Source: a virus. Taken from it: a DNA stretch of 64,000 nt. The stretch covers positions 1 through 64,000 of IMG/VR virus record IMGVR_UViG_3300021963_000074; one strand, written 5' to 3'. The notes beneath the pieces were generated by a model. That model worked only from the letters and a program-made list of their open reading frames with translations, searched no databases and was not told the origin of the DNA. Numbering within the stretch: position 1 is the stretch's first letter; each line of letters starts with the position of its first letter. This document shows, piece by piece, positions 4,236 to 18,055 of the stretch. Made by a program: the position numbers and the translations under genes.

Positions 4236-5525
4236 TTATCTTGCGTAACTTACTTGTCCTTGTCTGCTAATAGAAATATGTTCTGCTACCCACTCAGCAA
4301 CACCATGGTCTTCATCATTTCTACTACGCCACCCATAATTTTTCCAATAAGGATTAAAATATTTTTTTATATGATGAGCCATTATCAGACCTAAATTGTA
4401 ATAAGTTACAGGTTCATCCGACTCATTTGTATCATTCATTATATCAATAGCAATTTCTTTCATCTGTGATGGTGTTACTGCTAATGCACTTTTTATATCA
4501 ACCAAAAATCTTCTAGCATCATCATTATAATCAAAGTAGTCATTAATTTTAGGATTATCATGTATGACTTCCCAGATTTCGTCATCATCCATTTCATCAT
4601 TAATGATACCCATTTTTTTAGCGGTGTCTAATTGCCAGTCTTTAAAATAACTGTCATTGTCTTCCCAATCACTTGCCATTTGATAAACATGATCCATTGT
4701 TAAATCACGAATTTGTAAACCCATTGATGCTAATAAAGCATCATCTGTAAAAGGAACCAACTCTTTAACTTCAGGTTCTTTTGTAATGAAGTATTTGTAA
4801 AGGTCAGGGAATCTTTCAGTTAACAATTCGTATAAATTAATTGGGTCATCCTGTTCATCCATGAATTGGTCTGAACCAAAATGTAATTGATATTTTTCAC
4901 CATCATAGCTAGGTTGGGTAGGTAACAAAATATACAATGGTCTTTCTTTACTACTGTATCTACTAAAATAATTTGTTCCTTTTGTGGCTGCTGTACACCA
5001 ACGAGTACCTTGACCATAATAACAAGCAGCTTGTTCATTTTCTGGTATAACAACTCTTACATCATTATCTCTATAAACTTCTACTGCTTGCCCTTTATCT
5101 TTTAGTGGCTCTGCTGGAGGCTCATAGTTATTCATTATTGTGTAGAACTGAGGATAGGTCAACCGCATGATATCCTTAGCATCAGCACGAAAATCATTAC
5201 GCTTTTTATATTTGTCATAATCTGCTAACAATGGACCTAACACATGTGCATCTTCTAAACGTTTGATGTTTTGTTTAGCATACTCACGTGCTAACCATGG
5301 AACATATATTTTATTTTTAGTTGGATCTGCTTCTTCTAAGTTACGTAATACTTCTGCAAGTATTGCTTCTGTATTTGGTTGACCATCAGGAAATACAAAT
5401 GTTGTATTATAGAATTGATACTGTTGTTTGTCTCCGCCTGTTGCAAAGGCATTTATCAACTGCGGACCTACCATCTGTGCAGTTTTGGCTCTATTGTATT
5501 CAATTAAAAACTCACAGGCTCTCAT
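4236..5525 (-). CDS. Putative internal virion protein with PcfJ-like (YGxGTxWC) domain
   Basis: N-terminus MRACEFLIE; central AACYYGQGTRWCTAA...PLYIL...KYQLHF...FMD motif typical of large-phage proteins. Confidence 0.5.
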   Translation of the reverse strand: MRACEFLIEYNRAKTAQMVGPQLINAFATGGDKQQYQFYNTTFVFPDGQPNTEAILAEVLRNLEEADPTKNKIYVPWLAREYAKQNIKRLEDAHVLGPLLADYDKYKKRNDFRADAKDIMRLTYPQFYTIMNNYEPPAEPLKDKGQAVEVYRDNDVRVVIPENEQAACYYGQGTRWCTAATKGTNYFSRYSSKERPLYILLPTQPSYDGEKYQLHFGSDQFMDEQDDPINLYELLTERFPDLYKYFITKEPEVKELVPFTDDALLASMGLQIRDLTMDHVYQMASDWEDNDSYFKDWQLDTAKKMGIINDEMDDDEIWEVIHDNPKINDYFDYNDDARRFLVDIKSALAVTPSQMKEIAIDIMNDTNESDEPVTYYNLGLIMAHHIKKYFNPYWKNYGWRSRNDEDHGVAEWVAEHISISRQGQVSYAR

Positions 5526-5526
5526 T

Positions 5527-5970
5527 TTATTTTTCAGGTACTAGGTGCTGTGCATCACCCTTTTCATTCCATTTATGCCACATTTGTTTACCCATTTGAC
5601 TTTGATAAGGACTTGGTTTAATGTCATTCCCTAACATTTTAGCATAAGCATACATTGTACTTGCTACCCCTTTACTACGATATTTTTCTTCAACTTGTGT
5701 CTCGTCACTTTGAAGCCATTGTTGATTATCTTCTTCAGTATGAAGTACAAATACGGCCTGGCCTATATACTGTTTACCTACTGGTTGTCTTGGGTCGTAT
5801 GCACTTATTACTAATCCAGGTATATCACCTAATGCTAAGTAATGTTCTGCTTTATAGATGTATGGACCTATACGAACCTCATGCTCCCAACTTGGTCCAG
5901 AACTAGTATCATTAGGATCACCTAATGTTTCTGGATTAACCACCTCTGATACAAATTCTTTTGCTCTCAT
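5527..5970 (-). CDS. GNAT-family acetyltransferase with CTS-like leader
   Basis: MRAKEFVSE leader; GNAT motif A VEEKYRSKGVASTMY followed by QSQMGKQMW. Confidence 0.7.
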   Translation of the reverse strand: MRAKEFVSEVVNPETLGDPNDTSSGPSWEHEVRIGPYIYKAEHYLALGDIPGLVISAYDPRQPVGKQYIGQAVFVLHTEEDNQQWLQSDETQVEEKYRSKGVASTMYAYAKMLGNDIKPSPYQSQMGKQMWHKWNEKGDAQHLVPEK

Positions 5971-8483
5971 TGAAATATATCTGAATGTTCTTTACCGTAT
6001 ATTTTTATATACTTGCCTGCCATCATATCTGCTAGTGCTTCAATAGGACTTCCAGGATAGCTATCACCGTGCTTAATCATACCAAGTTGGTCTTGTCTAT
6101 GATGTACTAACTCATGGAATATAGTACGGAATATATCAACTAAATTTCTATTCTCAATATATACCCAAATTCTATCTCCAGTGTGCATTCCAGTGCGATG
6201 ACCTTTTTGTGCCTGTTCTGTATCTCTACTCAATGTAAATTTAGGATATGGCTTTTCTATATTCAATGTTATCATCGACCATTTAATAAAATTTTTAATT
6301 TTTTGCACATCATCTTTTTGTTCAATAGATTCACGTAAATGACTATTCGTGCCTGCTGCCCAACCCTTAAAGTCATATGCATCATCTCTTGGTAGTAGAA
6401 CAGACTGGCCCGTTTTATTGGTGAGTAAGACGTTATCAACTTCCTCATCATGATCAATATTCCAACCACGTTGTTGTAGTTGTGCCGTGATAAATTGTAA
6501 TTGATTTCTAGTACCAGAACCATATCCTTTTGGATCTAGTACGGCTGCTGAACCTCCATCTTCCATGTCAGCCCAGAACCAATCGTTAGCTAATTTCAAT
6601 ACATCTTTGGGTAACTTCTTCCAAGTAATACCGGCTGGTTTTTTAGCAATTGGCACAACGTTCTGACTAGTTGTGCGTTGTGTTACTTGTTTTTTCTTTT
6701 GTAATGGACTTACGTTAGGTTTAGTAGGTTGTTGCTTGTTGGGGAATTGCAACACTTCACCTTCTTTCATTCTCTCTTTTTTTTTAGCAATAGCAATAGC
6801 AGCTTGCATTGCAGGATTCTTTGCCTCAGCAATTTTTTGTTCAGCAATCATTGTTAATTGTTGTAATTCTTCAATAGATTCACAGTTCCATCTACGCAAT
6901 GCTTTGTTGATTGGGCTATCTGGATCTCGCTTAGTCTTGACACTAGCATTATGTTTCTTCATTCCACCCATTCTAGCACAGAAACTTTTACGACGGCTGG
7001 CAGCTTTACTGCCCTTCTTTAATTTACTTGGCTTAGTTGTTACAGCAGTCTTTAACTTACTACCTGGATTCTCTCTACGATATGCTTTAACTGCTTTGCC
7101 ACTCATGCCATCAGTCTTGTCACTCTTGTTGACTTTCTGCCAATCTTCCGCCACACCTTGCGTTTGTGTTGCTTTTGTAAATTGATTGGGTCTTACCATA
7201 TCTAATCTACGAGGATCATTCATTATAGAAGGATCTTTCATCAGTTCGCTTTTAGGATTAACCCAAAACCCAACCATTGTTCCTTTTAAAGGCAATGCAC
7301 CTTTTGGAACAACTACTGCTTCTTCAAATTCTCCACCTGCTTTTGCAGTAGGTTCGGCGTTTTTTGCCTTGGCCTTTGCAATATTTCTTGCCATTGGATC
7401 TGTGTTCTGTGATCTTGCCACTCCATTTTTTGTAAGATATGGATTGAATGCTAGTCCTTTGATATTTGTACTTTGACTTGTACCTAATGTTTTGAAATTA
7501 CTTTCAACTGCATTACGATCTAGTACTAATATTGCATCTCTACCAATGCTTACCATTTGTGTTTGTGCGTTAACACCATTAGCATAACCCCAATCTCTGG
7601 TTACACTTACTGTAGGCAGTTTGGTTTGCGCTGAGGTTGCTGCCTGTGGTGCTCTTGCTGATCGAATACTACCCGACGATAACATTCCTTTAAGACCACT
7701 CGCACTTGTAGCGTGATATAGATAGTTACCGCCTACTGCCTCATCTAAACCTTCCGCCACACCTTGCTCAACGCTTTCACTTTTGTATGTGGCCCCAGTG
7801 CATACCCAAGCAGGGCCTGTGTATCCTTGAGGGAATGCCTTCAAATGTTGAATAGTTCTGTGCCAACCTTCAATCAAATCATACCCGTTTGATAATTTAG
7901 CAACAATAATAGGTTCAGCACTTACGCCTTTTTGCTGAATCATTTGTGATTGTTGTGCATGTCTTTCGGCATCTCTTGGAACTTGAAAAGGATTAGAACT
8001 ACCACCTTCACGACTAGCAAGCATACGCTGAGTCTTTGGTGTAAAGATATCAAATGTTATAGGCAGTTTAGTCAGTGTCCATTTACAATTACCAAAGTCT
8101 TGTTTATTTCTTTTGAGAAAATCATCTAACTCTGCTTGGTCACGGATGCCCTTGGCTTGTGGATATAAGAAGTCTTTCAATACATAATCAGGCCAAGTAG
8201 GAAACTGTTGCTTCACAAAAGCAAATAAACTATTTCTAGCTTCTGACAAATCTTCCGCCACACCTTCTTCACCTAGCTTTTCTTTGTATTTTTTTATCCA
8301 GGTGTCTGGCGTATGACCGTATTTGCTCACAAATAAGTCATGTAATTTTTTGCCGGTGATCTTGTAACGCTTACTGATGCGTTGCATTAAATTGTCAATA
8401 GTACTGTAGTCTATTTTGCGTAGGCTAGGTAATTTCTTTTTTAATTCATCGACTGCGGATTCGTAAAGTAGTTCTGCTCTCAT
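5967..8483 (-). CDS. Modular polyprotein: ParB-like + ART-like + RRKSFCARM domain + zincin, joined by GVAE/x-x-E linkers
   Basis: PIIV..YDLIEGWHR (ParB/Srx-like); YLYHAT..VSVTR..EFEE (ART-like); RRKSFCARM..ALRRWNC (DUF6321-like); IFHELVH..IEALA (HExxH zincin); three GVAE repeats. Confidence 0.7.
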   Translation of the reverse strand: MRAELLYESAVDELKKKLPSLRKIDYSTIDNLMQRISKRYKITGKKLHDLFVSKYGHTPDTWIKKYKEKLGEEGVAEDLSEARNSLFAFVKQQFPTWPDYVLKDFLYPQAKGIRDQAELDDFLKRNKQDFGNCKWTLTKLPITFDIFTPKTQRMLASREGGSSNPFQVPRDAERHAQQSQMIQQKGVSAEPIIVAKLSNGYDLIEGWHRTIQHLKAFPQGYTGPAWVCTGATYKSESVEQGVAEGLDEAVGGNYLYHATSASGLKGMLSSGSIRSARAPQAATSAQTKLPTVSVTRDWGYANGVNAQTQMVSIGRDAILVLDRNAVESNFKTLGTSQSTNIKGLAFNPYLTKNGVARSQNTDPMARNIAKAKAKNAEPTAKAGGEFEEAVVVPKGALPLKGTMVGFWVNPKSELMKDPSIMNDPRRLDMVRPNQFTKATQTQGVAEDWQKVNKSDKTDGMSGKAVKAYRRENPGSKLKTAVTTKPSKLKKGSKAASRRKSFCARMGGMKKHNASVKTKRDPDSPINKALRRWNCESIEELQQLTMIAEQKIAEAKNPAMQAAIAIAKKKERMKEGEVLQFPNKQQPTKPNVSPLQKKKQVTQRTTSQNVVPIAKKPAGITWKKLPKDVLKLANDWFWADMEDGGSAAVLDPKGYGSGTRNQLQFITAQLQQRGWNIDHDEEVDNVLLTNKTGQSVLLPRDDAYDFKGWAAGTNSHLRESIEQKDDVQKIKNFIKWSMITLNIEKPYPKFTLSRDTEQAQKGHRTGMHTGDRIWVYIENRNLVDIFRTIFHELVHHRQDQLGMIKHGDSYPGSPIEALADMMAGKYIKIYGKEHSDIFQ
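7147..7159 (-). repeat. 13-bp junction repeat AAGGTGTGGCGGA, copy 1
   Basis: + strand TCCGCCACACCTT; encodes QGVAE. Confidence 0.95.
7753..7765 (-). repeat. 13-bp junction repeat, copy 2
   Basis: + strand TCCGCCACACCTT; encodes QGVAE. Confidence 0.95.
8254..8266 (-). repeat. 13-bp junction repeat, copy 3
   Basis: + strand TCCGCCACACCTT; encodes EGVAE. Confidence 0.95.
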
Positions 8484-8489
8484 AGTATA

Positions 8490-8498
8490 GTATTTATG
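8490..8498 (-). promoter_or_regulatory. T4-type late promoter
   Basis: CATAAATAC a few nt upstream of ATG 8483. Confidence 0.7.
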
Positions 8499-8570
8499 CT
8501 CACTTTGATGAATTGGGTAGCGAATCCTATCATGCAGCCAGCAGCCGGCTACTCGGTCCTAAGGCGAGTT
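8498..8570. ncRNA. Candidate structured RNA (three adjacent hairpins)
   Basis: GC-rich intergenic island with stems at 8508-8533, 8536-8550 and 8551-8569. Confidence 0.35.
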
Positions 8571-8642
8571 CTATACAGGGCTATATGGGTTCAAAGGTCT
8601 GTCCCATTCCCCTTCTTGTTCTGGATATACTGGATATTGCAT
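8571..8642 (-). CDS. Possible 23-aa peptide MQYPVYPEQEGEWDRPLNPYSPV
   Basis: ATG 3 nt after the upstream stop; below the ORF-track size cutoff. Confidence 0.35.
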   Translation of the reverse strand: MQYPVYPEQEGEWDRPLNPYSPV

Positions 8643-8645
8643 ATG

Positions 8646-9470
8646 TTAATCCCACTCTAAAAATCTTATTTCAAAGGTATTAATGTCAGTTGGTCTAATT
8701 AATATAGGACGTGTTTTATTGACGCTATTAGTCAATAACCAATCCTTATTGTTGCTATCTCTATACTTTAATACAGGATTGTATCTTAACTTCATAATCT
8801 GATCATACCCGTGTAATATATCTCCTGCTACCCCTAAAAACCAATCATTTTGATCTTTTCCTGAAGTTCTATCGTATTTAGGTGTATAACGAGAAAATTT
8901 ACCTGTTAATTTATCTGTGTATGCTTCATATCCGTGTAGTTTTAAATCGGTAACTAATTCTGCGGTATATTTCAACTTTTTACCACTACCGTGTGCCAAT
9001 ACTATTCTATATGTAGTGTATTCTGTTTCATCTGGATACATGATATCCAATAACATTGTATAAAAGAAATTTATTTTTTCAGGTTCATAACTATGATCAG
9101 TTTGGTCTACTGATTCAATCCCTGAATTTATAATACCACTATGTGACTTGGGTCTAAAGAATGTACAGTTATCATCTCCTTGCCAAGCCGCGGCAAACTT
9201 CTTAGTAATATTTTCATCCCCGTTATTACAACAAACCCATAATACTGAGAAATTACCTATATTCTTACCATGAACAAAAGGTATATTGTTATTTGGATTT
9301 TGCCCTATTGGAATATTTACATTTTCCTGCAATACATCAAATGTAACATTGTATTTTGATGTAGGGATTTTTTTATCAAATTTGATATAAACAAAATTGT
9401 CTTGTTCTCGTTCATCCCGCAAACCTGTCATTTGCAGTATTTTATTAGCAAAGTTTCTAAATCCACCCAT
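8646..9470 (-). CDS. Hypothetical protein
   Basis: 274-aa ORF in operon orientation with SD GGGG; no recognised motif. Confidence 0.6.
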   Translation of the reverse strand: MGGFRNFANKILQMTGLRDEREQDNFVYIKFDKKIPTSKYNVTFDVLQENVNIPIGQNPNNNIPFVHGKNIGNFSVLWVCCNNGDENITKKFAAAWQGDDNCTFFRPKSHSGIINSGIESVDQTDHSYEPEKINFFYTMLLDIMYPDETEYTTYRIVLAHGSGKKLKYTAELVTDLKLHGYEAYTDKLTGKFSRYTPKYDRTSGKDQNDWFLGVAGDILHGYDQIMKLRYNPVLKYRDSNNKDWLLTNSVNKTRPILIRPTDINTFEIRFLEWD

Positions 9471-9501
9471 ATATACCCCATTAATAACTTACTTAGTCTA
9501 A

Positions 9502-9924
9502 TTACAATGGTACTTTACATTTATTTAAAACTTTGCTGATTAGATTGAATTTCTCTGCTAATCCTACATAGAATATATCCGGTGGGCGCTCAGTATATGC
9601 TACTTGGTCATATGCTAGACAACCCATTTCTTTATAGTAATTGTTACTGGGCCAGCGATTTTTTGCTAATTCTAACCCATTGATTAATAGGCACTCATCT
9701 GCTACACTGCTTAGAACTTTCTTTCGTTGTTCAATGGGTAGGCGTGTACCTTCCATAATTTTGATACATACTGGTTCACGATTTAAGTTTGGATTATCTA
9801 AGTATCGTGCGAACAAATGAACCACGTAAGCCTCTACATTATGTTCTAAATTTACACAAAGTTTACTTTCGGCTTCAAGTATAACTTCATAGCTGTGTTT
9901 TACATAAGTTAGATAGTGGTTCAT
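9502..9924 (-). CDS. Hypothetical helical protein
   Basis: 140-aa ORF with SD GAGGA; no confident family. Confidence 0.6.
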   Translation of the reverse strand: MNHYLTYVKHSYEVILEAESKLCVNLEHNVEAYVVHLFARYLDNPNLNREPVCIKIMEGTRLPIEQRKKVLSSVADECLLINGLELAKNRWPSNNYYKEMGCLAYDQVAYTERPPDIFYVGLAEKFNLISKVLNKCKVPL

Positions 9925-9930
9925 TATTCC

Positions 9931-10800
9931 TCACATAATATATATTTTACCTACACTGGCGCGTAGCACAGAGTCAAACAAATTAGATAATACATTTGAT
10001 AATTCTAAGCTAGCTTCTCCGCGTAATAATTCATCATTTTGTAATTCAGGATTCAATCTCATAAACTTAGTTGTTCTACCCCATGCTTTTCTACCATAGT
10101 CTAATGAAACTGGTAGTGGATTTAACGTAATTCTACCGTCTTTTAGATATTGTGCAAATAATTCATACATAAATTCATATGGTCTTTTTATCTGTCCGGT
10201 GCGACTACTACGCTGTGTGCCTATAGCATTGAAAAAAGCACCGTATTCTTGTTGTAGGTTCCAATTAACAGCAGTATTAGTATACCTATGCTCTGCTGAT
10301 TTATTATAATAATCTTTTAGAATCTTATTGATATAATTAAAGAAATAACTCTCTGCCTTATTCCATGGATCAGCAATATTACCTCTTGATGTGCCATAAT
10401 TATTACGATTTGATGCAGTAATTGCATGACCAAATCTATGTGCCATTACCCACGGCGTCATCATAACTGCTCTGTCACCGGTGTTACCTATAAACACAAT
10501 AGTAATTGCATTTTCGTGCCTGTTAACAATTAAATCTGCTTGCTCTTTGCTAAAGATATTTTTAACTTCATTTGGATTTATTGCTCCGTATTCTTTAAAC
10601 TTTCGTAGTCCTGGACTATTATTAAAAAACAATCTAAAATTATAAGGTGTGTTCTCTAAAAATTTAATTGCTTTTGTTTGAGTAACAGGATGTGTAATCA
10701 GTTTACGGTCTACTGGATTAAACTGCCCTTTCTTTTCAAAATCACCCAATGGTACATAATCTTGTAATGGGGCTTCTGTGATGAACTCTGTTGCTCTCAT
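9931..10800 (-). CDS. Putative internal virion protein with degenerate zincin-like HRFGH motif
   Basis: MRATEFITE leader; WVMAHRFGHAI and downstream YEFMYELFAQY. Confidence 0.5.
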   Translation of the reverse strand: MRATEFITEAPLQDYVPLGDFEKKGQFNPVDRKLITHPVTQTKAIKFLENTPYNFRLFFNNSPGLRKFKEYGAINPNEVKNIFSKEQADLIVNRHENAITIVFIGNTGDRAVMMTPWVMAHRFGHAITASNRNNYGTSRGNIADPWNKAESYFFNYINKILKDYYNKSAEHRYTNTAVNWNLQQEYGAFFNAIGTQRSSRTGQIKRPYEFMYELFAQYLKDGRITLNPLPVSLDYGRKAWGRTTKFMRLNPELQNDELLRGEASLELSNVLSNLFDSVLRASVGKIYIM

Positions 10801-11426
10801 AATATTCTATAATAATCTATAAAGTTTTCGTGTCTATCTTTAAGTCCACGCATTGCTGGATTAATATATTTGGTAACAGTAGCAGTATCTTTGAAATTAG
10901 TTATATTAGGTCTAACTCTAGTTTTCCAATACCATATAGCAATCTTGGCAGCAATGTCAGGTCTGGCTGCATATTCAGGATGATTGATTAAATCTATATT
11001 CAATGCTTGGCTAGCCATTCTATAATTATCACGACCAGTCAACTGTACAAACCCTCTGCCATGATATTTTTCACCATCTCCTGGACGAGTGTTTCCTAAT
11101 ATTCTTGCTGTCTTGGGTGCATATTGAACACCGTATCTTTTTTCAAAATAGCCTTTACCCATTGGCTTTTCTTTTAGTCGTTCAAAGTTCCATGATTCGT
11201 GTTTCATCTGAGCCAAGAATTGAGCCAATTCTGGTCCTTTTAATCCTGAGCCTATTGCAACTTTTTGCAAAGTGATTTCGTTCTGTGGGTTGTTACTTAA
11301 TACATTGAAATCTGTGGGCATTTTTAAGCCTAGTGAGGCTTGTGCTCCTGTGGCTGCTCCGGCACCCATTGCACCAAGAAACCCTCTGCGAGTTAAATCT
11401 TCTGCAATGATTTCTGATGCTCTCAT
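10797..11426 (-). CDS. Glycoside hydrolase family 19 (muramidase) with CTS-like leader and twin-arginine motif
   Basis: FLAQMKHES, YHGRGFVQLTGRDNY, VTKYIN; N-terminus MRASEIIAE-DLTRRGFLG. Confidence 0.85.
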   Translation of the reverse strand: MRASEIIAEDLTRRGFLGAMGAGAATGAQASLGLKMPTDFNVLSNNPQNEITLQKVAIGSGLKGPELAQFLAQMKHESWNFERLKEKPMGKGYFEKRYGVQYAPKTARILGNTRPGDGEKYHGRGFVQLTGRDNYRMASQALNIDLINHPEYAARPDIAAKIAIWYWKTRVRPNITNFKDTATVTKYINPAMRGLKDRHENFIDYYRIL

Positions 11427-11866
11427 TATGCTCGTTCTTTTTTAAGAACACTGCGAATCATCCACTGATGTTTTTCGTGTGCATCTAATCTTTCTGCGAT
11501 AAAATTAGCAATGCCTTGTTTGTTTTCTTCTGTAGCTGATTGAAAACACATATTTAGAAAATCAATCATCTTAGCGTTGTCCGTTAGCAATTCAGTAAAC
11601 ATCAATTCAGCACGTGGAATCTTAGTTTGATCTGGAATAATACTAAGTTCAGCATAGCGTGTTAAACTACCTGGGGTATAGCTATCTAAGGTACGAATAT
11701 ATTCTGCAACTCTATCTACTGAACCGTATACCTCTGTATAGAAATTGTCAAAGAAACTATGATATTGTGGGAAGTCGGCACCTTCAACATTCCAATGAAA
11801 GTTTTGTGCTTTGATAGCAAGTGCATTTGTACTTGCTAATAGTATTTTTAAGTTATCAGTTAACAT
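11426..11866 (-). CDS. dps: Dps / ferritin-like DNA starvation protection protein
   Basis: NFHWNVEGADFPQYHSFF, DRVAE ferroxidase motif, HEKHQWM. Confidence 0.92.
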   Translation of the reverse strand: MLTDNLKILLASTNALAIKAQNFHWNVEGADFPQYHSFFDNFYTEVYGSVDRVAEYIRTLDSYTPGSLTRYAELSIIPDQTKIPRAELMFTELLTDNAKMIDFLNMCFQSATEENKQGIANFIAERLDAHEKHQWMIRSVLKKERA

Positions 11867-11929
11867 ATTATTTCCCCGGTGGGGTTCCTTTGTTCTTTAA
11901 GTAAAAATCAATTACGCCTCTGTCCATAT

Positions 11930-13381
11930 TTAGTGCTTCAATAATAATGTACTTAATACACCAGTATCATTTGCAGTCAAGTCTGGTTCACCGGGAGCAA
12001 TAATAACATTCCATTTCATATTAGGAATCTTTTGACCTTTAGTAGCCCACTCGTCATAACTTAATATTGAATTAGCACTTAATCCATACTCGGTAGCTAA
12101 ACGTTGTTTTAATTCAGGTAACTTTTCAGGTATGATTTGCCATTGTCCTTCACTACCCTTATCTAAATTACCCTTAGCATCTTTAACTAATAAGTCTTGG
12201 AATAGTCCAGTTGGTACAATACGACTATTTTTAGTTGTATCTAATTTAGGATCAGCTGCCTTAACTTGTTTCTCTTGGCTTGTATGAGCACCCTCACTCC
12301 AATTGATAATGAAGTTATCGGGTTTCTGTGCTAGTGCGGCACCAGCCATCTTTGTATAAGCGTAGAATTTAACATCAGGTAAGCTGTTTGCTAACTTGAA
12401 TGCTAAGTCTAAGTATTCTGGACTAAAGAAGTCGCCAGCGTCATGCCAACGAATAGTTACATTATAACCGCCCTTTTTACCTAATTTTTCTTCTTTAGCA
12501 ATTTCATTTGCTAGTTGCTCAAAGAAACCATCTGGGTTGTTCAATAGATATGTAATGATGCGTCCGTCACTTAACCAAGCCGCTTCAAACTGAATCTTGC
12601 CGCCCTTCATAGCAAAGCAATCTATTTTACAGCTGCCAGCGCCAGGACATGTATTAACAACAATTAAATTGTTTGTGTTCTCGTCTAATGCAATACCAAC
12701 TAATGCGGCAAAACCAATATTGAAGAACTGTTCTAAGTCTCCATTACTGTGCTTCATCTTTTCATTTTGCTTTAGTAATTTCTTTGGACGTACTGCTAAT
12801 GCTTGTTTAACATCTTCTTCACGGTATCTGTTACCTGCAGGATCATAGTACTTGACTACACTACTACGGTGAATATAAGGCATACGATATTTGTCTTGTT
12901 TTGTTTTTCCAGACACATATTTTTCTTTGCCTTTTTTATCTAACTTTACTTGACCTGTCTTTTTATCAATGTCAGGAGTGCCAGCAATTCGTGTCATATA
13001 ATCTTGAAATTCTTGTCCACCTATATCACGCTGGTCGATAGGAAGTTTAGTTGCTTCAGGTATCATACCTTTACCGGCAAGTTTTTCTAGTTCTAAATAT
13101 TGTTGTTTTAACTTTTCCCAAGTTTCTGAGTCGCGCCTTTTATTGGCATCTAACATTTTACTATGTAATACATCAGCTTTTGCCAAATAATCATTCATTT
13201 GTATCCTGTTAATTCTACTACTAATTGGCTCGGTAGTATTTTCATCAACTTCTTCATTACCATCTACAAAATCATCGGCTTCAGGATCAGAAACAAACTG
13301 GTCAACTGACATAATTTTAATGCCACTAGGGGCTCCAGGTAATTTGGGTTCTGCACCTTCGTATAATTCTGTTATTTTCAT
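11930..13381 (-). CDS. GP88-family (radical-SAM-like) protein with CTS-like leader
   Basis: TCPGAGSCKIDCFA, IRWHDAGDFF and FYAYTK motifs; MKITELYE leader. Confidence 0.7.
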   Translation of the reverse strand: MKITELYEGAEPKLPGAPSGIKIMSVDQFVSDPEADDFVDGNEEVDENTTEPISSRINRIQMNDYLAKADVLHSKMLDANKRRDSETWEKLKQQYLELEKLAGKGMIPEATKLPIDQRDIGGQEFQDYMTRIAGTPDIDKKTGQVKLDKKGKEKYVSGKTKQDKYRMPYIHRSSVVKYYDPAGNRYREEDVKQALAVRPKKLLKQNEKMKHSNGDLEQFFNIGFAALVGIALDENTNNLIVVNTCPGAGSCKIDCFAMKGGKIQFEAAWLSDGRIITYLLNNPDGFFEQLANEIAKEEKLGKKGGYNVTIRWHDAGDFFSPEYLDLAFKLANSLPDVKFYAYTKMAGAALAQKPDNFIINWSEGAHTSQEKQVKAADPKLDTTKNSRIVPTGLFQDLLVKDAKGNLDKGSEGQWQIIPEKLPELKQRLATEYGLSANSILSYDEWATKGQKIPNMKWNVIIAPGEPDLTANDTGVLSTLLLKH

Positions 13382-13885
13382 TTAATTCTCCAAATCTTCA
13401 TGGGACCATGATATGTAACTTTTCCCGTTTGTGTCCCCTGCACGTACTACAAACACGCCACCATTATCATAACTACCTTCATCTTCACCGATTTCCCAGC
13501 CCATACTTGCTAGTGTGCGTTCAGCACGAATCATGTCTTGTTCAGTACCTAACCACCATTGTTTAGCTAATTGGCGTAAAATTTCTTCACCATCTTGTCC
13601 ACCATTATCACCGTCACCAGTATCAGCAAATTCTTTTAGTCCCTTAAGGTGCTTCTTTATATCAACGATAGGTGTGAATAAGTGATTAAGAATCTGTCTT
13701 TTCTTTTGCTCTGTTTGAAAACTTTCATTTTTCATTATAGGGCATTTCCATATGCCTTCAGTTTTAGTTGGATAAAAAGGAAAATGCTGTTGAACTTTCA
13801 ATGCACTATTTTTATCTTGGTTATCAACTTGGTAATATAAGTTTTTACCAAACGCACCTTCAACTAAAACATCAGTTATTTTCAC
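13382..13885 (-). CDS. Two-module putative internal virion protein
   Basis: MKITDVLVE leader; internal LKE site; C-terminal module resembles a module of 5967..8483. Confidence 0.55.
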   Translation of the reverse strand: MKITDVLVEGAFGKNLYYQVDNQDKNSALKVQQHFPFYPTKTEGIWKCPIMKNESFQTEQKKRQILNHLFTPIVDIKKHLKGLKEFADTGDGDNGGQDGEEILRQLAKQWWLGTEQDMIRAERTLASMGWEIGEDEGSYDNGGVFVVRAGDTNGKSYISWSHEDLEN

Positions 13886-15876
13886 TTTGCTGACTTTCTT
13901 AATGCATCAGCAGTCGGTGCACCTTTACTACCTGGCTTACGCATGTGTTCTCCGCTACCATGTTTAATACGTTCACGTTTAGCATGTATGTTAGCCCATA
14001 AGCCTTTGCTTTCCTCCGCCACACCTTTTGGTTTTAATTTTCTAACTGTCCAAGACCCATCGTTGTTGATTCGGTCTAATTCATACTTGTGGTATTTTGC
14101 ATCGCCTTGAGGATCTAAGTCTTCGCCAGCTATATCACGCACATACTCATCGTATAGTGCTGGATCTGAATTGTAAATTGCTGGATCAAGTATTACAACA
14201 TGGTCTGCATAATAAATCTTATTGCCTTTAATTGTTGGTCCGGTAGTAGAACCTTCCGCCACACCTTTAGTTAATCCTGGTACTTCATTTTTGAGCACAC
14301 TCATGGCTCGCTGTAGACTTGAATAAGTGTCAATGTGCTTACCGTTGGCGTGAATCATGAAGTCTGTGGGACTGGACTGAATGATTTCATATTTGCCACC
14401 ATCAGCACCGGTGCCCGAAAACACAACTTGTCCGTCCGTGCCTTCCGCCACACCTTGCTGACCACGTTGTGCTTGAAATGCTTGTGCTTTTTCATCGCTA
14501 CTTTGTTTTGATCCTTTGAACATTAACATTGCCGCAAATAACATTAGTGTTACAGGAATCAATCCTAGAATACTACCAGATGCTACTGCGCCTCCTACTT
14601 CGCCTGCGGCTGCGTGTGCCAATACACCATCAATCATTCCCATAGCATTCATCCACATTGTAGATAAAATGCTGCCGCCACCTACTGCCAATCCACCAAG
14701 TTGTTTCGTCATACCCGATTCGGCGACTGTGGCAGACTGACCTGCTGCCAATTGTTCCATCTTTTGTTTAACTTCTTTACCAGACTTGCTGGTCTTCAGA
14801 ATTTCAATCAATTGTGGCTTGTATTGTTGTGCCATTTGATAATATTTGCCAATGCCAGGAATCTTCTTGACTAATGCTGTAATAGTTTCAATAGCACCTT
14901 CATCTAACTGGTAGCCCTCCGCCACACCTTGCTCTTTAACTTTACCTTTGTTGTGTGCTTTCCATGCAGTAGCATAAGCAATACTTTTCTCTTTAGGACT
15001 TAGTTTACCATCTTTGCTATAACTCTTTTTGATGTGTTTTACCATGCGTTCTGCTTTAGCTCCGGGAGGTGCAACTTCTGCCATACCCTGTCCGTTATCC
15101 AAACGCTTAATCAAATCTAATAATTTTTCGTAGCGCATACGATTATTATTCCACGTAGACCAAGAACCATAGTGGTCTGCATATTGGTCATGACTGTTCT
15201 GAGCCAACCATGCTTTTAATGCGTTTGCTTCCTGAGTGTATTCATCTCTCTTTGAACCAGTATTTTCATCTATCGTATAGACATTGCCACGTTCATGCTG
15301 ACTAATCATATAATCCATGACAGTAACCATAATAGATTTGGCTACTGCAATTTTCTCTTGTACCCATTCTGGTAAATTTTCATCTGCTTGTAATTCGTTG
15401 CCCAAATGACCTGATACTCTAACAATAGTATGTAGATTATTTTGCACCATGTCTACTTCATCATTGTATTCACCGCCGCCGTCGAATTCTTCTTTTGCCA
15501 TGATATCACGGTCTTCTGGTCTATTACCTATGTCACGGGCTTTTGATTTGTTAAAGAATTCTTTTCTTTTTGATTTTGCTAGTAATTGTTCTTCGCTGAT
15601 ATCATCTTCGCTTATTGCTTCTTCTTTAATACCAGCTTTTCTGCTGTTTGGAAACTTTTCGCTAGAACTGATGCCTTGAAACATACTACCTTTACCCCTA
15701 CGTTGCATACTTCCCATGGGCTGTGCTACTGTAGCAATAGAACCTGAAGTAGTTTCTTCAATCTTTTCATCTTCTAACACGTTTGGATCACGACCAAATT
15801 TAGGTGCTTGTTGACTCTGTAGTCCTGAAGGACTGCTAACTGTCGTTGTCATTTCAAAAAGAGAGGATATTTTCAT
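13882..15876 (-). CDS. Modular polyprotein with four GVAE repeats (plus one GMAE)
   Basis: MKISSLFE leader; modules LPEWVQEKI, IAYATAWK, a hydrophobic membrane module, two small unknown modules and a basic GLWANIHAKR..KPGSKGAPT tail. Confidence 0.7.
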   Translation of the reverse strand: MKISSLFEMTTTVSSPSGLQSQQAPKFGRDPNVLEDEKIEETTSGSIATVAQPMGSMQRRGKGSMFQGISSSEKFPNSRKAGIKEEAISEDDISEEQLLAKSKRKEFFNKSKARDIGNRPEDRDIMAKEEFDGGGEYNDEVDMVQNNLHTIVRVSGHLGNELQADENLPEWVQEKIAVAKSIMVTVMDYMISQHERGNVYTIDENTGSKRDEYTQEANALKAWLAQNSHDQYADHYGSWSTWNNNRMRYEKLLDLIKRLDNGQGMAEVAPPGAKAERMVKHIKKSYSKDGKLSPKEKSIAYATAWKAHNKGKVKEQGVAEGYQLDEGAIETITALVKKIPGIGKYYQMAQQYKPQLIEILKTSKSGKEVKQKMEQLAAGQSATVAESGMTKQLGGLAVGGGSILSTMWMNAMGMIDGVLAHAAAGEVGGAVASGSILGLIPVTLMLFAAMLMFKGSKQSSDEKAQAFQAQRGQQGVAEGTDGQVVFSGTGADGGKYEIIQSSPTDFMIHANGKHIDTYSSLQRAMSVLKNEVPGLTKGVAEGSTTGPTIKGNKIYYADHVVILDPAIYNSDPALYDEYVRDIAGEDLDPQGDAKYHKYELDRINNDGSWTVRKLKPKGVAEESKGLWANIHAKRERIKHGSGEHMRKPGSKGAPTADALRKSAK
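14015..14027 (-). repeat. 13-bp junction repeat, copy 4
   Basis: + strand TCCGCCACACCTT; encodes KGVAE. Confidence 0.95.
14255..14267 (-). repeat. 13-bp junction repeat, copy 5
   Basis: + strand TCCGCCACACCTT; encodes KGVAE. Confidence 0.95.
14444..14456 (-). repeat. 13-bp junction repeat, copy 6
   Basis: + strand TCCGCCACACCTT; encodes QGVAE. Confidence 0.95.
14918..14930 (-). repeat. 13-bp junction repeat, copy 7
   Basis: + strand TCCGCCACACCTT; encodes QGVAE. Confidence 0.95.
15077..15089 (-). repeat. Degenerate junction repeat (10/13)
   Basis: + strand TCTGCCATACCCT; encodes QGMAE at a module boundary. Confidence 0.6.
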
Positions 15877-15897
15877 AATACAAATTCCATATATTAT

Positions 15898-15906
15898 GTA
15901 TTTATC
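15898..15906 (-). promoter_or_regulatory. T4-type late promoter heading the cargo cluster
   Basis: GATAAATAC upstream of ATG 15876. Confidence 0.7.
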
Positions 15907-15921
15907 GTTTTTGGATAGTTG

Positions 15922-16605
15922 TCAAGGTAAATTAAAAAGTATCATTTCTGAATCATCAGGGCTAGTTATTTCTAACATGTTTTCTTGCTCAAACATATAT
16001 CCATCACCCTCAACTGATTCATTCCCATTGATAGTAGCTTTACCTGTAATTATATACAAGTAATATTTACAAGTGGGGTCTAGATTTTCAGTATACGATT
16101 CTGTAAAAATACCAGCTTTTACTATAGCATCACTTTGTATAGTAACTGGACTACCTTTTTGACTAGCAATATTTGCAAACTTGTTTAATTTATCTTCTCT
16201 AGTAAACTGATATCCATCATATTTAGGGGGTATTCCCATTTTATTGGGGCGCAACCATATCTGCAAATAACGAATAGGTTTATCTGAATTATTACCCTCA
16301 ATATGCCAAATACCAGACCCAGCTGTCATATGTTGAACTGAGCCTGTCGGTACTTGTAGTATATTGCGTAAGTTGTCGTTATGATAGCATGGACCATTAA
16401 TTACATAGCCCAGTATCTCCATATCCATGTGTTGATGTACGGGTACAAAATGTCTTGGTTGAACTCTATCATCATTGATTACTTCTAATATAGAGTAATT
16501 GATATAGTTTGTATCCCAGTAACTGTTATTGCTAAATGAACGATATGTTTCAAACCATCCAACATTCATATGTTTTCTGGTATCTTTTGGTCTATGTTTA
16601 ATCAT
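15922..16605 (-). CDS. Pirin-family cupin protein (YhhW-like)
   Basis: VINDDRV, HQHMDMEILGYV, MTAGSGIWHIE, LQIWLRP. Confidence 0.9.
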   Translation of the reverse strand: MIKHRPKDTRKHMNVGWFETYRSFSNNSYWDTNYINYSILEVINDDRVQPRHFVPVHQHMDMEILGYVINGPCYHNDNLRNILQVPTGSVQHMTAGSGIWHIEGNNSDKPIRYLQIWLRPNKMGIPPKYDGYQFTREDKLNKFANIASQKGSPVTIQSDAIVKAGIFTESYTENLDPTCKYYLYIITGKATINGNESVEGDGYMFEQENMLEITSPDDSEMILFNLP

Positions 16606-16669
16606 TTAAAATAACTTATAAAATTTATTGTTATTTATAGTAAATTAATTGGTTATATTTATTATAATC

Positions 16670-18055
16670 TTATAGACCGTATGTTGACCTGTTAGCGTTA
16701 AAGTTCTGTAGTACTTGGTTAGCGGTTAGTGCGGCATTGTACAATCTTGTTATACCTATACGGCCGGTAAAATACTGACTATATTCTCCATTGTTGTAAC
16801 TGCCTAGATACAAGTTAGATGGTGTATTTAATAGGCTAGATAGGGTATGTGACACCGAACCTATGCTAGAACCGTTAATGTAAGTTACTAGTGTTTTAGT
16901 GGCACCGTTTGTCCAAACATACACAATATGTACCCAAGTATTAAGCGACATTGTGTAACTTGTACTGTTGACGTAGTTACCTAGACCATCACCCATCTGA
17001 GCGAACGCGGTGGCTGTAGCTATACGTATTGAATATGACACATCTTGTGAGCCACCTCCGGGATCAAATTTACCTAGAATAGTTTTGGTTCCTCCACCTG
17101 TGTTACTAAGATAAGCCCAGGCTTCCATAGTCCAACTTCCAGATCCAGGTTCTAATAATGCATTATCCGGAATATTAACCTGACTACTTGTTCCATTATA
17201 TGTAAAGTACGGATCAGTATAAGTGATGTTGCTCATTGTACCATTTAATCCGTTGCCGGAAATATCAAACAATGTTGTTCCTGTTCCCGGATAACTTGTA
17301 GTTAAATCAGGATTGTAATAAGCGACTAAATTAGTAGTTACACTGAAATATTTAAGAGATAATGCATTATAGTTTTGTGTTATTTCATCCGCAGATAGTG
17401 CCCGTCCATATACAGCAGTCATACCAATGTCTCCGTACCAGTAGTTGTCACCTAAAGCTACATATTCTCCACTGTTGGCGCTATATTGAGCAAATGTTAC
17501 ACCAGTGTTAGTTCCCACAGGTTGTCCGTTGAGATAATAAGTTACTAGTCCGCCGGTGGTATGCGTAATTGCGATAACAAGCCACTGCATATATGCTATT
17601 GATAGATTGTTGCTAAAACCTCCAACGCCATTGGCACTGTAATGTAGTTTAAAGTTTGATCCATCAAAGTACATATAGGTATTAAAATTTCTAGTGCCAC
17701 CATTGGTGCCAAACAAGCAACGGTATGTGCCGGTTGAAAAAGAACTGTTAGCCATTCTTGCGGCCACTATAACAGTTTTACCAGTGTAGGCAACATTAAA
17801 CTTACTTGCTGTTGTTGAAGCATACTGTGCACCTGTACCACTAAAAGTAAAATAACTGGCGGCGCCAGCACTGGTGAAGGTAGGGCTATTTACTAATGTA
17901 GCATTACTAGCATTGTCTGATAAACCAGTCCAGGCTGTTCCTGTGCCAGGATAGCTGGCAGTGTTGCCAGCATCTACATACAACAACGCACCGTTACTAT
18001 TAAACGAATTGTCATATACTGTTAGACCTTGTAAAGTTACACCTTGTATAATCAT
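16670..18055 (-). CDS. Tandem LamG/concanavalin-A-like lectin domain virion protein
   Basis: Two repeats each starting SYPGTGT and ending YxxALS/TAxxIxQNY/FNA. Confidence 0.8.
   Translation of the reverse strand: MIIQGVTLQGLTVYDNSFNSNGALLYVDAGNTASYPGTGTAWTGLSDNASNATLVNSPTFTSAGAASYFTFSGTGAQYASTTASKFNVAYTGKTVIVAARMANSSFSTGTYRCLFGTNGGTRNFNTYMYFDGSNFKLHYSANGVGGFSNNLSIAYMQWLVIAITHTTGGLVTYYLNGQPVGTNTGVTFAQYSANSGEYVALGDNYWYGDIGMTAVYGRALSADEITQNYNALSLKYFSVTTNLVAYYNPDLTTSYPGTGTTLFDISGNGLNGTMSNITYTDPYFTYNGTSSQVNIPDNALLEPGSGSWTMEAWAYLSNTGGGTKTILGKFDPGGGSQDVSYSIRIATATAFAQMGDGLGNYVNSTSYTMSLNTWVHIVYVWTNGATKTLVTYINGSSIGSVSHTLSSLLNTPSNLYLGSYNNGEYSQYFTGRIGITRLYNAALTANQVLQNFNANRSTYGL

Follow-up and report, generated by a model that had tools for sequence, protein, structure and literature searches.

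Why would a phage carry the same 13 nucleotides seven times inside two genes, always in the same reading frame and each time between unrelated stretches of protein? This question arose from a 64,000-nucleotide window of viral DNA (positions 1 to 64,000 of IMG/VR record IMGVR_UViG_3300021963_000074), for which an initial annotation made from the letters alone had proposed that two open reading frames (ORFs) encode polyproteins assembled from cassettes, with the 13-mer acting both as the DNA junction where cassettes are exchanged and as a site for the protease of the phage head. Comparison of related phages showed that whole modules are exchanged at this linker, with the reading frame kept. The explanation we favor, with a probability of roughly 0.68, is that both genes belong to an aquatic jumbo phage of the T4 superfamily and encode head-cargo polyproteins, in which the linker is a probable protease site as well as a frame-preserving crossover point for general recombination. 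The record that holds the window measures 90,742 bp, has 92 called ORFs and has a completeness rating of 25%, from which the whole genome would be about 360 kb; in what follows, G000 is the window's own record, G001 is a complete relative of 359,563 bp, and L-numbers denote fetched loci. By its DNA polymerase, the phage falls near Atu_ph07, Phosso, and the Rak2/121Q/CBB jumbo phages.

Seven exact copies of AAGGTGTGGCGGA lie on the minus strand at 7147, 7753, 8254, 14015, 14255, 14444, and 14918, just where the initial annotation had placed them, and no further copy with up to one mismatch occurs elsewhere in the 90,742-bp record. Each copy is read in frame as xAA GGT GTG GCG GAR, giving (Q/E/K)GVAE. 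Three copies lie in polyprotein gene 1 (P0001, 5967-8483, 838 aa) and four in polyprotein gene 2 (P0002, 13882-15876, 664 aa), both also on the minus strand, as are all of their modules and linkers given below. The spacings of 606 and 501 bp in the first gene and 240, 189, and 474 bp in the second are all multiples of 3. Dinucleotide shuffles predict 0.77 matches at two or fewer mismatches, compared to 8 seen, and when synonymous codons were shuffled 2000 times among the record's 92 ORFs, the mean count was 0.014 and the maximum was 1, compared to 7 in the record. Although GTG and GCG are rare codons here (11.3% and 5.2% of their codon families genome-wide, with GGT at 53.5%), GGT-GTG-GCG is fixed in all seven copies, while an incidental GVAE that is not at a junction, at 4293-4304, is indeed spelled GGT GTT GCT GAG. 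When the seven sites are aligned, the conserved part consists of the 13-mer plus one G two bases downstream, and the flanks are unrelated. Gene 2 has, in addition, a degenerate linker, GMAE (CAG GGT ATG GCA GAA, with the last four codons at 15076-15087), which is found at the same site in L127 and L128.

The linker is not peculiar to this record. An exact scan of IMG/VR for AAGGTGTGGCGGARG returned at least 119 contigs, many of them with 2-7 copies. Of the 202 13-mers in the fetched loci, 194 are part of a long open frame that translates them as GVAE, the spacings within an ORF are again all multiples of 3, and across 186 distinct sites the flanks are nearly information-free, with a consensus that reaches only (A/G)AG CAA GGT GTG GCG GAA GGC. 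We corrected for ascertainment in two ways. With one canonical site dropped per locus, 105 GVAE sites in motif-bearing ORFs were left, in which GGT accounts for 98%, GTG for 84%, and GCG for 84% of the codons, compared to background shares of 44%, 20%, and 8%, while the Glu codon at these sites showed no excess. The second correction used 80 loci that were fetched through the module 1b peptide EGWHRT[IML]Q alone, without use of the linker DNA, and here 34 of 46 distinct GVAE sites are GGTGTGGCG (GGT-GTG-GCG), where 0.7% would be expected. Gly is GGT at every one of the 46 sites, and the non-canonical ones have GTA and/or GCA, with GCC once. Canonical linkers also adjoin modules that are just 41-45% identical to the window's. 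Together, the codon shuffle, the 105-site test, and the 34-of-46 test agree with the earlier claim that conservation acts on the DNA, beyond the peptide. Free synonymous variation in the GVAE codons, which the initial annotation had named as evidence that would speak against its proposal, does occur, yet only in about a quarter of the sites and almost always as a third-position G-to-A change.

A second form of the linker, QGMAE, has preferred DNA of its own, with CAAGGCATGGCGGAAGGC at 13 of 34 sites and GGTATGGCG at 7 of 34. The latter could be a hybrid of the GVAE and GMAE forms of the linker DNA, and two partly compatible linker 'alleles', GVAE and GMAE, are a possibility. The QGMAE form is found in loci L013, L026, L027, L031, L040, L114, L121, L131, L132, and L135. 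The complete relative has a second linker-bearing locus (G001:C1:326986-327376), about 74 kb from its first, with one exact 13-mer and one single-mismatch copy.

Comparison of close relatives locates the ends of homology at the linkers. We aligned positions 5001-17000 to the fetched loci by BLASTN and found that the L077/L127 contig is 96-99% identical over long shared blocks (5001-6764, 8252-14027, and 14916-16993), and L127 reaches 97-99% in the flanking genes, with homology ending at 14027 and restarting at 14916. At base level, the junction at position 4943 of L127 consists of the left flank of the linker at 14918-14930 (QGVAE/G) and the right flank of the linker at 14015-14027 (KGVAE/E), with the crossover within a shared 15 nt, and three modules are therefore absent there. 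Another junction in the same contig, L127@10701, consists of the left flank of the linker at 8254-8266 (EGVAE/D) and the right flank of the linker at 14444-14456 (QGVAE/G); module 2c (14254-14442, 63 aa) is therefore found in the other polyprotein gene, 6 kb away, and it has this location at 93% identity in L077/L127/L129. The linker at 8254 is a breakpoint relative to L077/L127, L128, and L129, and module 1a, which precedes it in the protein, is followed by differing modules in L077/L127, in L128, and in the window. Module 2d (14014-14253, 80 aa) is absent from L127 and L128, and it is separated from module 2c by another exact copy of the 13-mer, the linker at 14255-14267 (KGVAE/G).

More distant loci have single modules in common with the window. 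L027 has just module 1b (7752-8243, 93% identity), with homology that ends at the linker at 7753-7765 (QGVAE/G), and ten loci have only the hydrophobic module 2b (14439-14935, 76-96% identity), which the linker at 14444 borders, with neighbors that differ each time. At the linker at 7147-7159 (QGVAE/D), many high-scoring segment pairs (HSPs) end between 7148 and 7162. When all loci were compared to one another, 30% of 857 internal breakpoints of HSPs with at least 80% identity fell within 10 nt of a linker (the 13-mer with up to two mismatches), compared to 1.3% of random positions. When 1.8 billion cluster representatives were searched in full with HMMER, module 1b was found at 95-99% identity and at varying positions in at least 17 proteins, each the representative of its own cluster at 50% identity (for instance as residues 199-364 of 461, 322-487 of 1102, and 546-711 of 1311), and nearly all of those proteins bracket it with GVAE or a close variant. 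Modules are thus gained, lost, and moved exactly at the repeat with the frame kept in these alignments, as the initial annotation had predicted for related loci, and together these comparisons show that the linker is where modules are exchanged.

Contigs from four public aquatic metagenomes, compared to positions 5500-16500, leave the reference at 7148 (a loose contig end), 7750/7751, 14011, and 14457, which is weak evidence. Joints between contigs such as 14460>14913 were rejected as deletion variants, given that one side matches just 20-24 letters that are essentially the repeat itself. No circular or go-back joint was seen among the contig joints displayed (8 more were undisplayed), and contigs cannot reveal rare forms. 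Separately, in locus L129 (IMGVR_UViG_3300008110_004404), which is 97-99% identical, the stretch L129:1400-1600 differs from window positions 14014-15081 in that the GMAE site is joined to the last canonical linker one base off register, which shifts the frame of the ORF and ends it early, at 317 aa. The cause may be a crossover in which unlike linkers were misaligned, or an error in the sequencing.

The intervals between linkers had been called self-contained in appearance, and we consider them self-contained modules because homologs of two of them, 1b and 1c, occur as stand-alone genes. Searches of Pfam and PHROGs with single modules gave matches limited to DUF6321 and phrog_16028/30733/10346, and for modules 1b, 1c, 2b, 2c, and 2d no Pfam or PHROG family was found. 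Weak Protein Atlas leads to DarT/PARP and ParB_N prompted a fold search with modules 1b and 1c, in which the best matches were all of the expected fold and none reached E = 0.001. For module 1b (7752-8252, 167 aa), the AlphaFold model has a pLDDT of 87, and the top PDB matches are all ParB, Srx, KorB, Noc, or SbnI (best E 0.009); PDB sequence and profile searches with this module returned nothing. It carries an EP(I/V)I...EGWHRT motif, and we assign it a probable ParB/sulfiredoxin-like fold. The model of module 1c (7146-7751, 202 aa) has a pLDDT of 78, with DarT, Tpt1/KptA, PARP, and SopF as top PDB matches (best E 0.013) and invariant Y-H, S-x-T-R-D, and E-x-E-E residues, and its fold is probably ADP-ribosyltransferase-like. 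Both models have a confident core, while the linker-bearing termini have a pLDDT below 50 and are therefore predicted to be flexible.

Module 1d (5970-7145, 392 aa) begins with a DUF6321 domain (Pfam PF19846, E = 4e-10), and the C-terminal region of polyprotein 1, which it forms, contains an HELVHH (HExxH) motif at 6099-6116 (P0001 residues 790-795). The C-terminal 200 aa of the module had no Pfam, PHROG, or PDB match, and from the motif this region may be a candidate zincin-like peptidase. Many relatives keep this region at the gene's 3' end, with HSPs at about 5966-6314 in six different contigs. Also within module 1d, at about 6800-6860 (P0001 residues ~543-560), two adjacent I-A-E sites (…MIAEQKIAEA…) are followed by AAIAIAKKKERMKEG; in other contigs, the same AAIAI(A/S)KKK stretch leads into a canonical QGVAE, which makes this place resemble a decayed linker.

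Among the remaining modules, 1a (8253-8483, 77 aa) is a leader module with a capsid-targeting-like N terminus, and 2a (14917-15876, 320 aa) is the N-terminal part of polyprotein 2 and is conserved in relatives. Module 2b (14443-14916, 158 aa) is hydrophobic and glycine-rich and is possibly membrane-active. Module 2e (13885-14013, 43 aa) is a basic tail module that matches phrog_16028 (E = 8e-21), and homologous stretches occur in the genomes of cyanophages, pelagiphages, and roseophages. In those phages, matches were confined to single small modules (DUF6321 and the basic tail module). A megablast of positions 5900-16000 against 50,697 phage records found no near-identical cultured relative, and a tblastn of module 1b against cultured phages gave no match. 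In a separate observation, two T4-like Synechococcus phages, DSL-LC02 and S-SRM01 (L139:1270-3267 and L140:1600-3429), encode a multi-module protein of 610-665 aa directly downstream of terS, which in DSL-LC02, one of the two cyanophages examined, sits upstream of terL. It combines DUF6321 with several small Cys-containing modules that follow GVAE in jumbo phages, and its junctions are not GVAE.

What might the peptide encoded by the linker do? The T4 prohead protease gp21 follows the rule hydrophobic-x-Glu. The V-A-E of the linker fits a site of this type, as had been proposed, and orthologous junctions in distant relatives (QGMAE, QGVGE, QGVEE, QNMEE, QGMTE, QDMSE, and TVDE) keep exactly that minimum, with hydrophobic-x-Glu as their constant part. 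The capsid-targeting sequence of T4 is MKTYQEFIAE. Stand-alone homologs of 1b and 1c open with closely similar leaders of 8-10 residues (MKITELME, MRAEEFMVE, MRSYEFISE, and MRAQEFITE), which end exactly where the GVAE of the polyprotein ends, and in some of these homologs MRATEFIVE is immediately followed by GVAE. A capsid-targeting sequence is described as a conserved feature that diverse T-even internal proteins have in common (PMC3012670), and proteases of the phiKZ type are reported to cut at A/S/G-x-E (PMC10052503).

Leaders of this kind are concentrated around the two genes. The pattern M[KR]xxxΦxE or M[KR]xxxxΦxE is present in 8 of 12 ORFs in 4236-15876, compared to 4 of 80 other called ORFs of the record. 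Polyproteins 1 and 2 start with MRAELLYE, which resembles a capsid-targeting leader, and MKISSLFE, respectively, and the six other leader ORFs, within 4236-13885, start with MRACEFLIE, MRAKEFVSE, MRATEFITE, MRASEIIAE, MKITELYE, and MKITDVLVE. Judged by these leaders, region 4236-15876 looks like a cluster of head-cargo genes. In G001, the gene order is as in T4, with portal, a Peptidase_S77 protease of the gp21 family (L143:6476-7111, minus strand; E = 2.8e-28), a coiled-coil scaffold, and the gp23 capsid protein (E = 1.4e-99), whose propeptide has L-S-E at the position where T4 gp23 is cut. From this combination of peptide, leaders, and protease, we infer that the polyproteins would be packaged into the head and cut by the prohead protease. 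As for the other genes there, the leader-bearing ORFs include a GH19 muramidase (10797-11426) and a GP88-family protein (11930-13381), a ferritin/Dps-like ORF (11426-11866) is without a leader, and a Pirin gene (15922-16605) lies just past the cluster. The neighboring ORF at 16670-18055 matches the virion structural protein phrog_8510.

In the mechanism that we propose, each polyprotein is a chain of independent modules joined by (Q/E/K)-G-V-A-E, and the chain would be targeted once to the prohead and then freed as separate proteins during head maturation. On the DNA, the GC-rich block of 13-18 nt (consensus CAA GGT GTG GCG GAA GGC) would serve as a short, identical direct repeat in one frame, at which the general recombination and replication machinery of the phage could cross over within a gene, between the two genes, or between co-infecting relatives. 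Each crossover would delete, duplicate, move, or import a whole module and leave the frame and the cut site intact. The silent sites would be frozen in that linkers must be identical to go on exchanging and mutated copies are replaced in crossovers, while drifted linkers (GMAE, GVGE, GVEE, NMEE, and TVDE) would persist as fixed junctions that meet the protease requirement alone. G001 encodes a RecA/UvsX homolog, and general recombination would be the agent of exchange.

Several points weigh against this explanation. The evidence on cleavage, packaging, and recombination is comparative throughout and comes from uncultured phages. The genes for the prohead protease and capsid are known from G001 only and not from the 25%-complete window record, and the major capsid protein of that relative seems to use L-S-E, so that calling V-A-E a substrate extends the rule known from T4. 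A repeat of 13-18 bp is short for RecA-type exchange, and a dedicated nuclease or annealing protein is possible. Homogenization by use is a population-level argument, with which direct selection on the RNA or DNA sequence is compatible. Lastly, the fold calls for 1b and 1c stand on weak Foldseek E-values (0.009-0.013).

The most direct challenge concerns the agent of exchange. A phage nuclease, annealase, or recombinase unlike the known ones might recognize the 13-mer and catalyze the excision and insertion of cassettes, which would make the array an in-frame 'domain integron'. Such an enzyme would fit a site that is sharply bounded, with 13 invariant nucleotides and unrelated flanks, and that is frozen beside modules whose silent sites must be saturated; rearrangement is also frequent compared to point divergence, and most ORFs of such phages are without a known function. 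However, tyrosine (PF00589) and serine (PF00239) recombinases are absent from the window record, in keeping with the earlier remark that no recombinase is visible, as well as from the complete G001, with positive controls, and nothing in the cluster is nuclease-like, the Pfam matches there being GH19, ferritin/Dps, GP88, and Pirin. Dyad symmetry and an attC-like hairpin are both missing from the 13-mer, and no secondary structure of RNA or DNA is shared by the seven sites (z-scores of -1.7 to +0.9), where the motif pairs differently in each copy. Variants with one or two transitions are tolerated at the same positions, and the PeSL cassettes of T4-type phages are described as exchanging without a dedicated enzyme (PMC2839356). 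We therefore regard a dedicated enzyme as unlikely. The 'integron-like array' of the initial annotation stands insofar as modules are gained, lost, and moved in frame at the repeat, but not as to the machinery, given the missing recombinases, the missing attC-like hairpin, and cassettes that are not promoterless genes; we use the term as an analogy only. One could suppose instead that the DNA is conserved for a role in the mRNA or its translation, such as a pause at the rare GTG-GCG codons or at an AGGUG Shine-Dalgarno-like element that gives each module time to fold, with recombination as a by-product. The two codons are rare in these genomes, the motif includes AGGTG, and it is always at domain boundaries. 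On the other hand, the common alternative linker CAAGGCATGGCGGAAGGC (GMAE) is without AGGTG and is itself conserved at the DNA level, which argues against a Shine-Dalgarno-like pause as the cause of conservation. The common codons GGT and CAA are equally fixed, there is no common RNA structure, and pausing leaves the breakpoints at the linker among near-identical genomes unexplained, all of which makes this role quite improbable.

The protease side of our explanation can be doubted as well. The linker might be a flexible spacer that stays uncut, or it might be cut by an embedded peptidase, for which the HExxH region of gene 1 would be the candidate. For polyvalent phage proteins, processing by a zincin-like peptidase within the protein itself has been proposed (PMC5512222), the C-terminal region of gene 1 has the HELVHH motif, and the case for cutting by the prohead protease rests on sequence comparison. 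However, gene 2 and many related polyproteins carry the linker without an HExxH region, diverged junctions retain exactly hydrophobic-x-Glu, the linker is interchangeable with the end of a capsid-targeting-like leader at the same module boundary, and G001 encodes a gp21-family protease; we consider a spacer or an embedded peptidase very improbable. Finally, the mosaic could be an artifact, produced when metagenome assembly fused sequences into chimeric contigs at repeats, as the relatives are all metagenome contigs and common modules of 150-600 nt with 92-99% identity could mislead assemblers. The k-mers of assemblers are usually longer than the 13-18 nt linker, which therefore cannot itself cause misjoins. 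Chimeras inside a common module would leave the homology ends at the linker unmoved, the same junction types keep turning up in contigs of marine, estuary, lake, and freshwater origin, from many samples and studies that are independent of one another, and the spacings within ORFs are all multiples of 3, so that an artifact is hardly credible. None of these alternatives displaces, in our assessment, the reading of the two genes as head-cargo polyproteins whose linker is both a probable cut site and a crossover point.

How does this arrangement compare to known systems? The internal proteins of T-even phages (IPI, IPII, IPIII, and Alt) are described as diverse anti-host cargo with nothing in common but a short N-terminal leader, whose last residues are hydrophobic-x-Glu; they are loaded into the prohead, and gp21 trims them (PMC3012670). 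The likeness lies in the leaders of the 8 clustered ORFs and of the stand-alone homologs, and in the gp21-family protease of G001. Unlike T4, where one gene encodes one leader and one cargo, cargos are chained here within an ORF, with a repeated internal predicted cut site and frozen DNA. Polyvalent proteins (Iyer, Burroughs, Anand, de Souza, and Aravind 2017) are described as proteins of many domains, among them ADP-ribosyltransferase, DdrB-like ParB, and metallopeptidase domains. Their genes lie near virion genes, and the proteins are predicted to enter the host together with the DNA and are considered to be split into units (PMC5512222). Here too, several unrelated conflict-type domains share one polypeptide near virion genes, namely the ART-like and ParB/Srx-like domains (weak matches) and DUF6321. 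The proposed cutter, however, is the prohead protease and not an embedded metallopeptidase, and the portion of that account on which we draw describes no uniform linker, DNA conservation, or exchange at a linker.

Other known systems resemble the linker in the way units are exchanged. In the PeSL (promoter-early stem-loop) cassettes of T4-type phages, an intergenic promoter and hairpin motif is described as flanking small, variable whole genes, with mini-circles demonstrated; close relatives vary exactly at this motif, where units have been inserted, deleted, or replaced, and the authors, who likened the cassettes to integrons, describe a system for which a dedicated recombinase is not known (PMC2839356, PMC4122927). 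In our loci as well, a short conserved DNA motif bounds variable units, and the ends of insertions, deletions, and replacements between close relatives lie in the motif. Unlike the intergenic promoter and stem-loop of PeSL cassettes, copies of the GVAE linker are all coding, in frame, and hairpin-free, and they join protein modules. The glycine-rich motifs (GRMs) of the T2/T6-type gp38 adhesin are reported to be in frame and to part variable segments that are swapped by crossovers within the motifs (PMC3157838, citing Tetart 1998), which resembles the conserved in-frame linkers between variable segments of one gene. While GRMs belong to the core of one domain whose loops are swapped, whole domains are swapped here, also between genes, and the motif is probably a protease site too. 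With integron cassettes (IntI/attC), the array has in common exchangeable units, a recurring boundary site, and one upstream expression signal, but there is no IntI-type recombinase and no folded attC, and the units are in-frame protein modules and not promoterless genes. A full-text literature search for GVAE and phage returned no relevant description, and a uniform, DNA-frozen linker that serves as both a probable protease site and a crossover point is not described in the polyvalent-protein, PeSL, gp38, or T-even internal-protein literature, as far as the accounts cited here extend.

If our explanation is true, one sequence of 13-18 nt would allow these phages to fill the head with many different proteins by means of one targeting signal and to free them with one protease, with whole modules reshuffled and the reading frame and cut site never broken. 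It would be a natural example of selection or homogenization acting on silent sites for evolvability, and a ready design rule for multi-protein cargo in T4-type capsids. If a dedicated enzyme were to prove true instead, this would be the first 'integron for protein domains', a programmed in-frame rebuilding of injected effector polyproteins, in a system that aquatic jumbo phages would widely share. Since linkers enclose each module, the loci offer a large, easily delimited catalog of candidate injected effectors. Genomes that are 97-99% identical differ by several modules, and the polyproteins are therefore among the fastest-changing parts of these phages. The polyprotein region is probably a front line of their conflict with host defenses.

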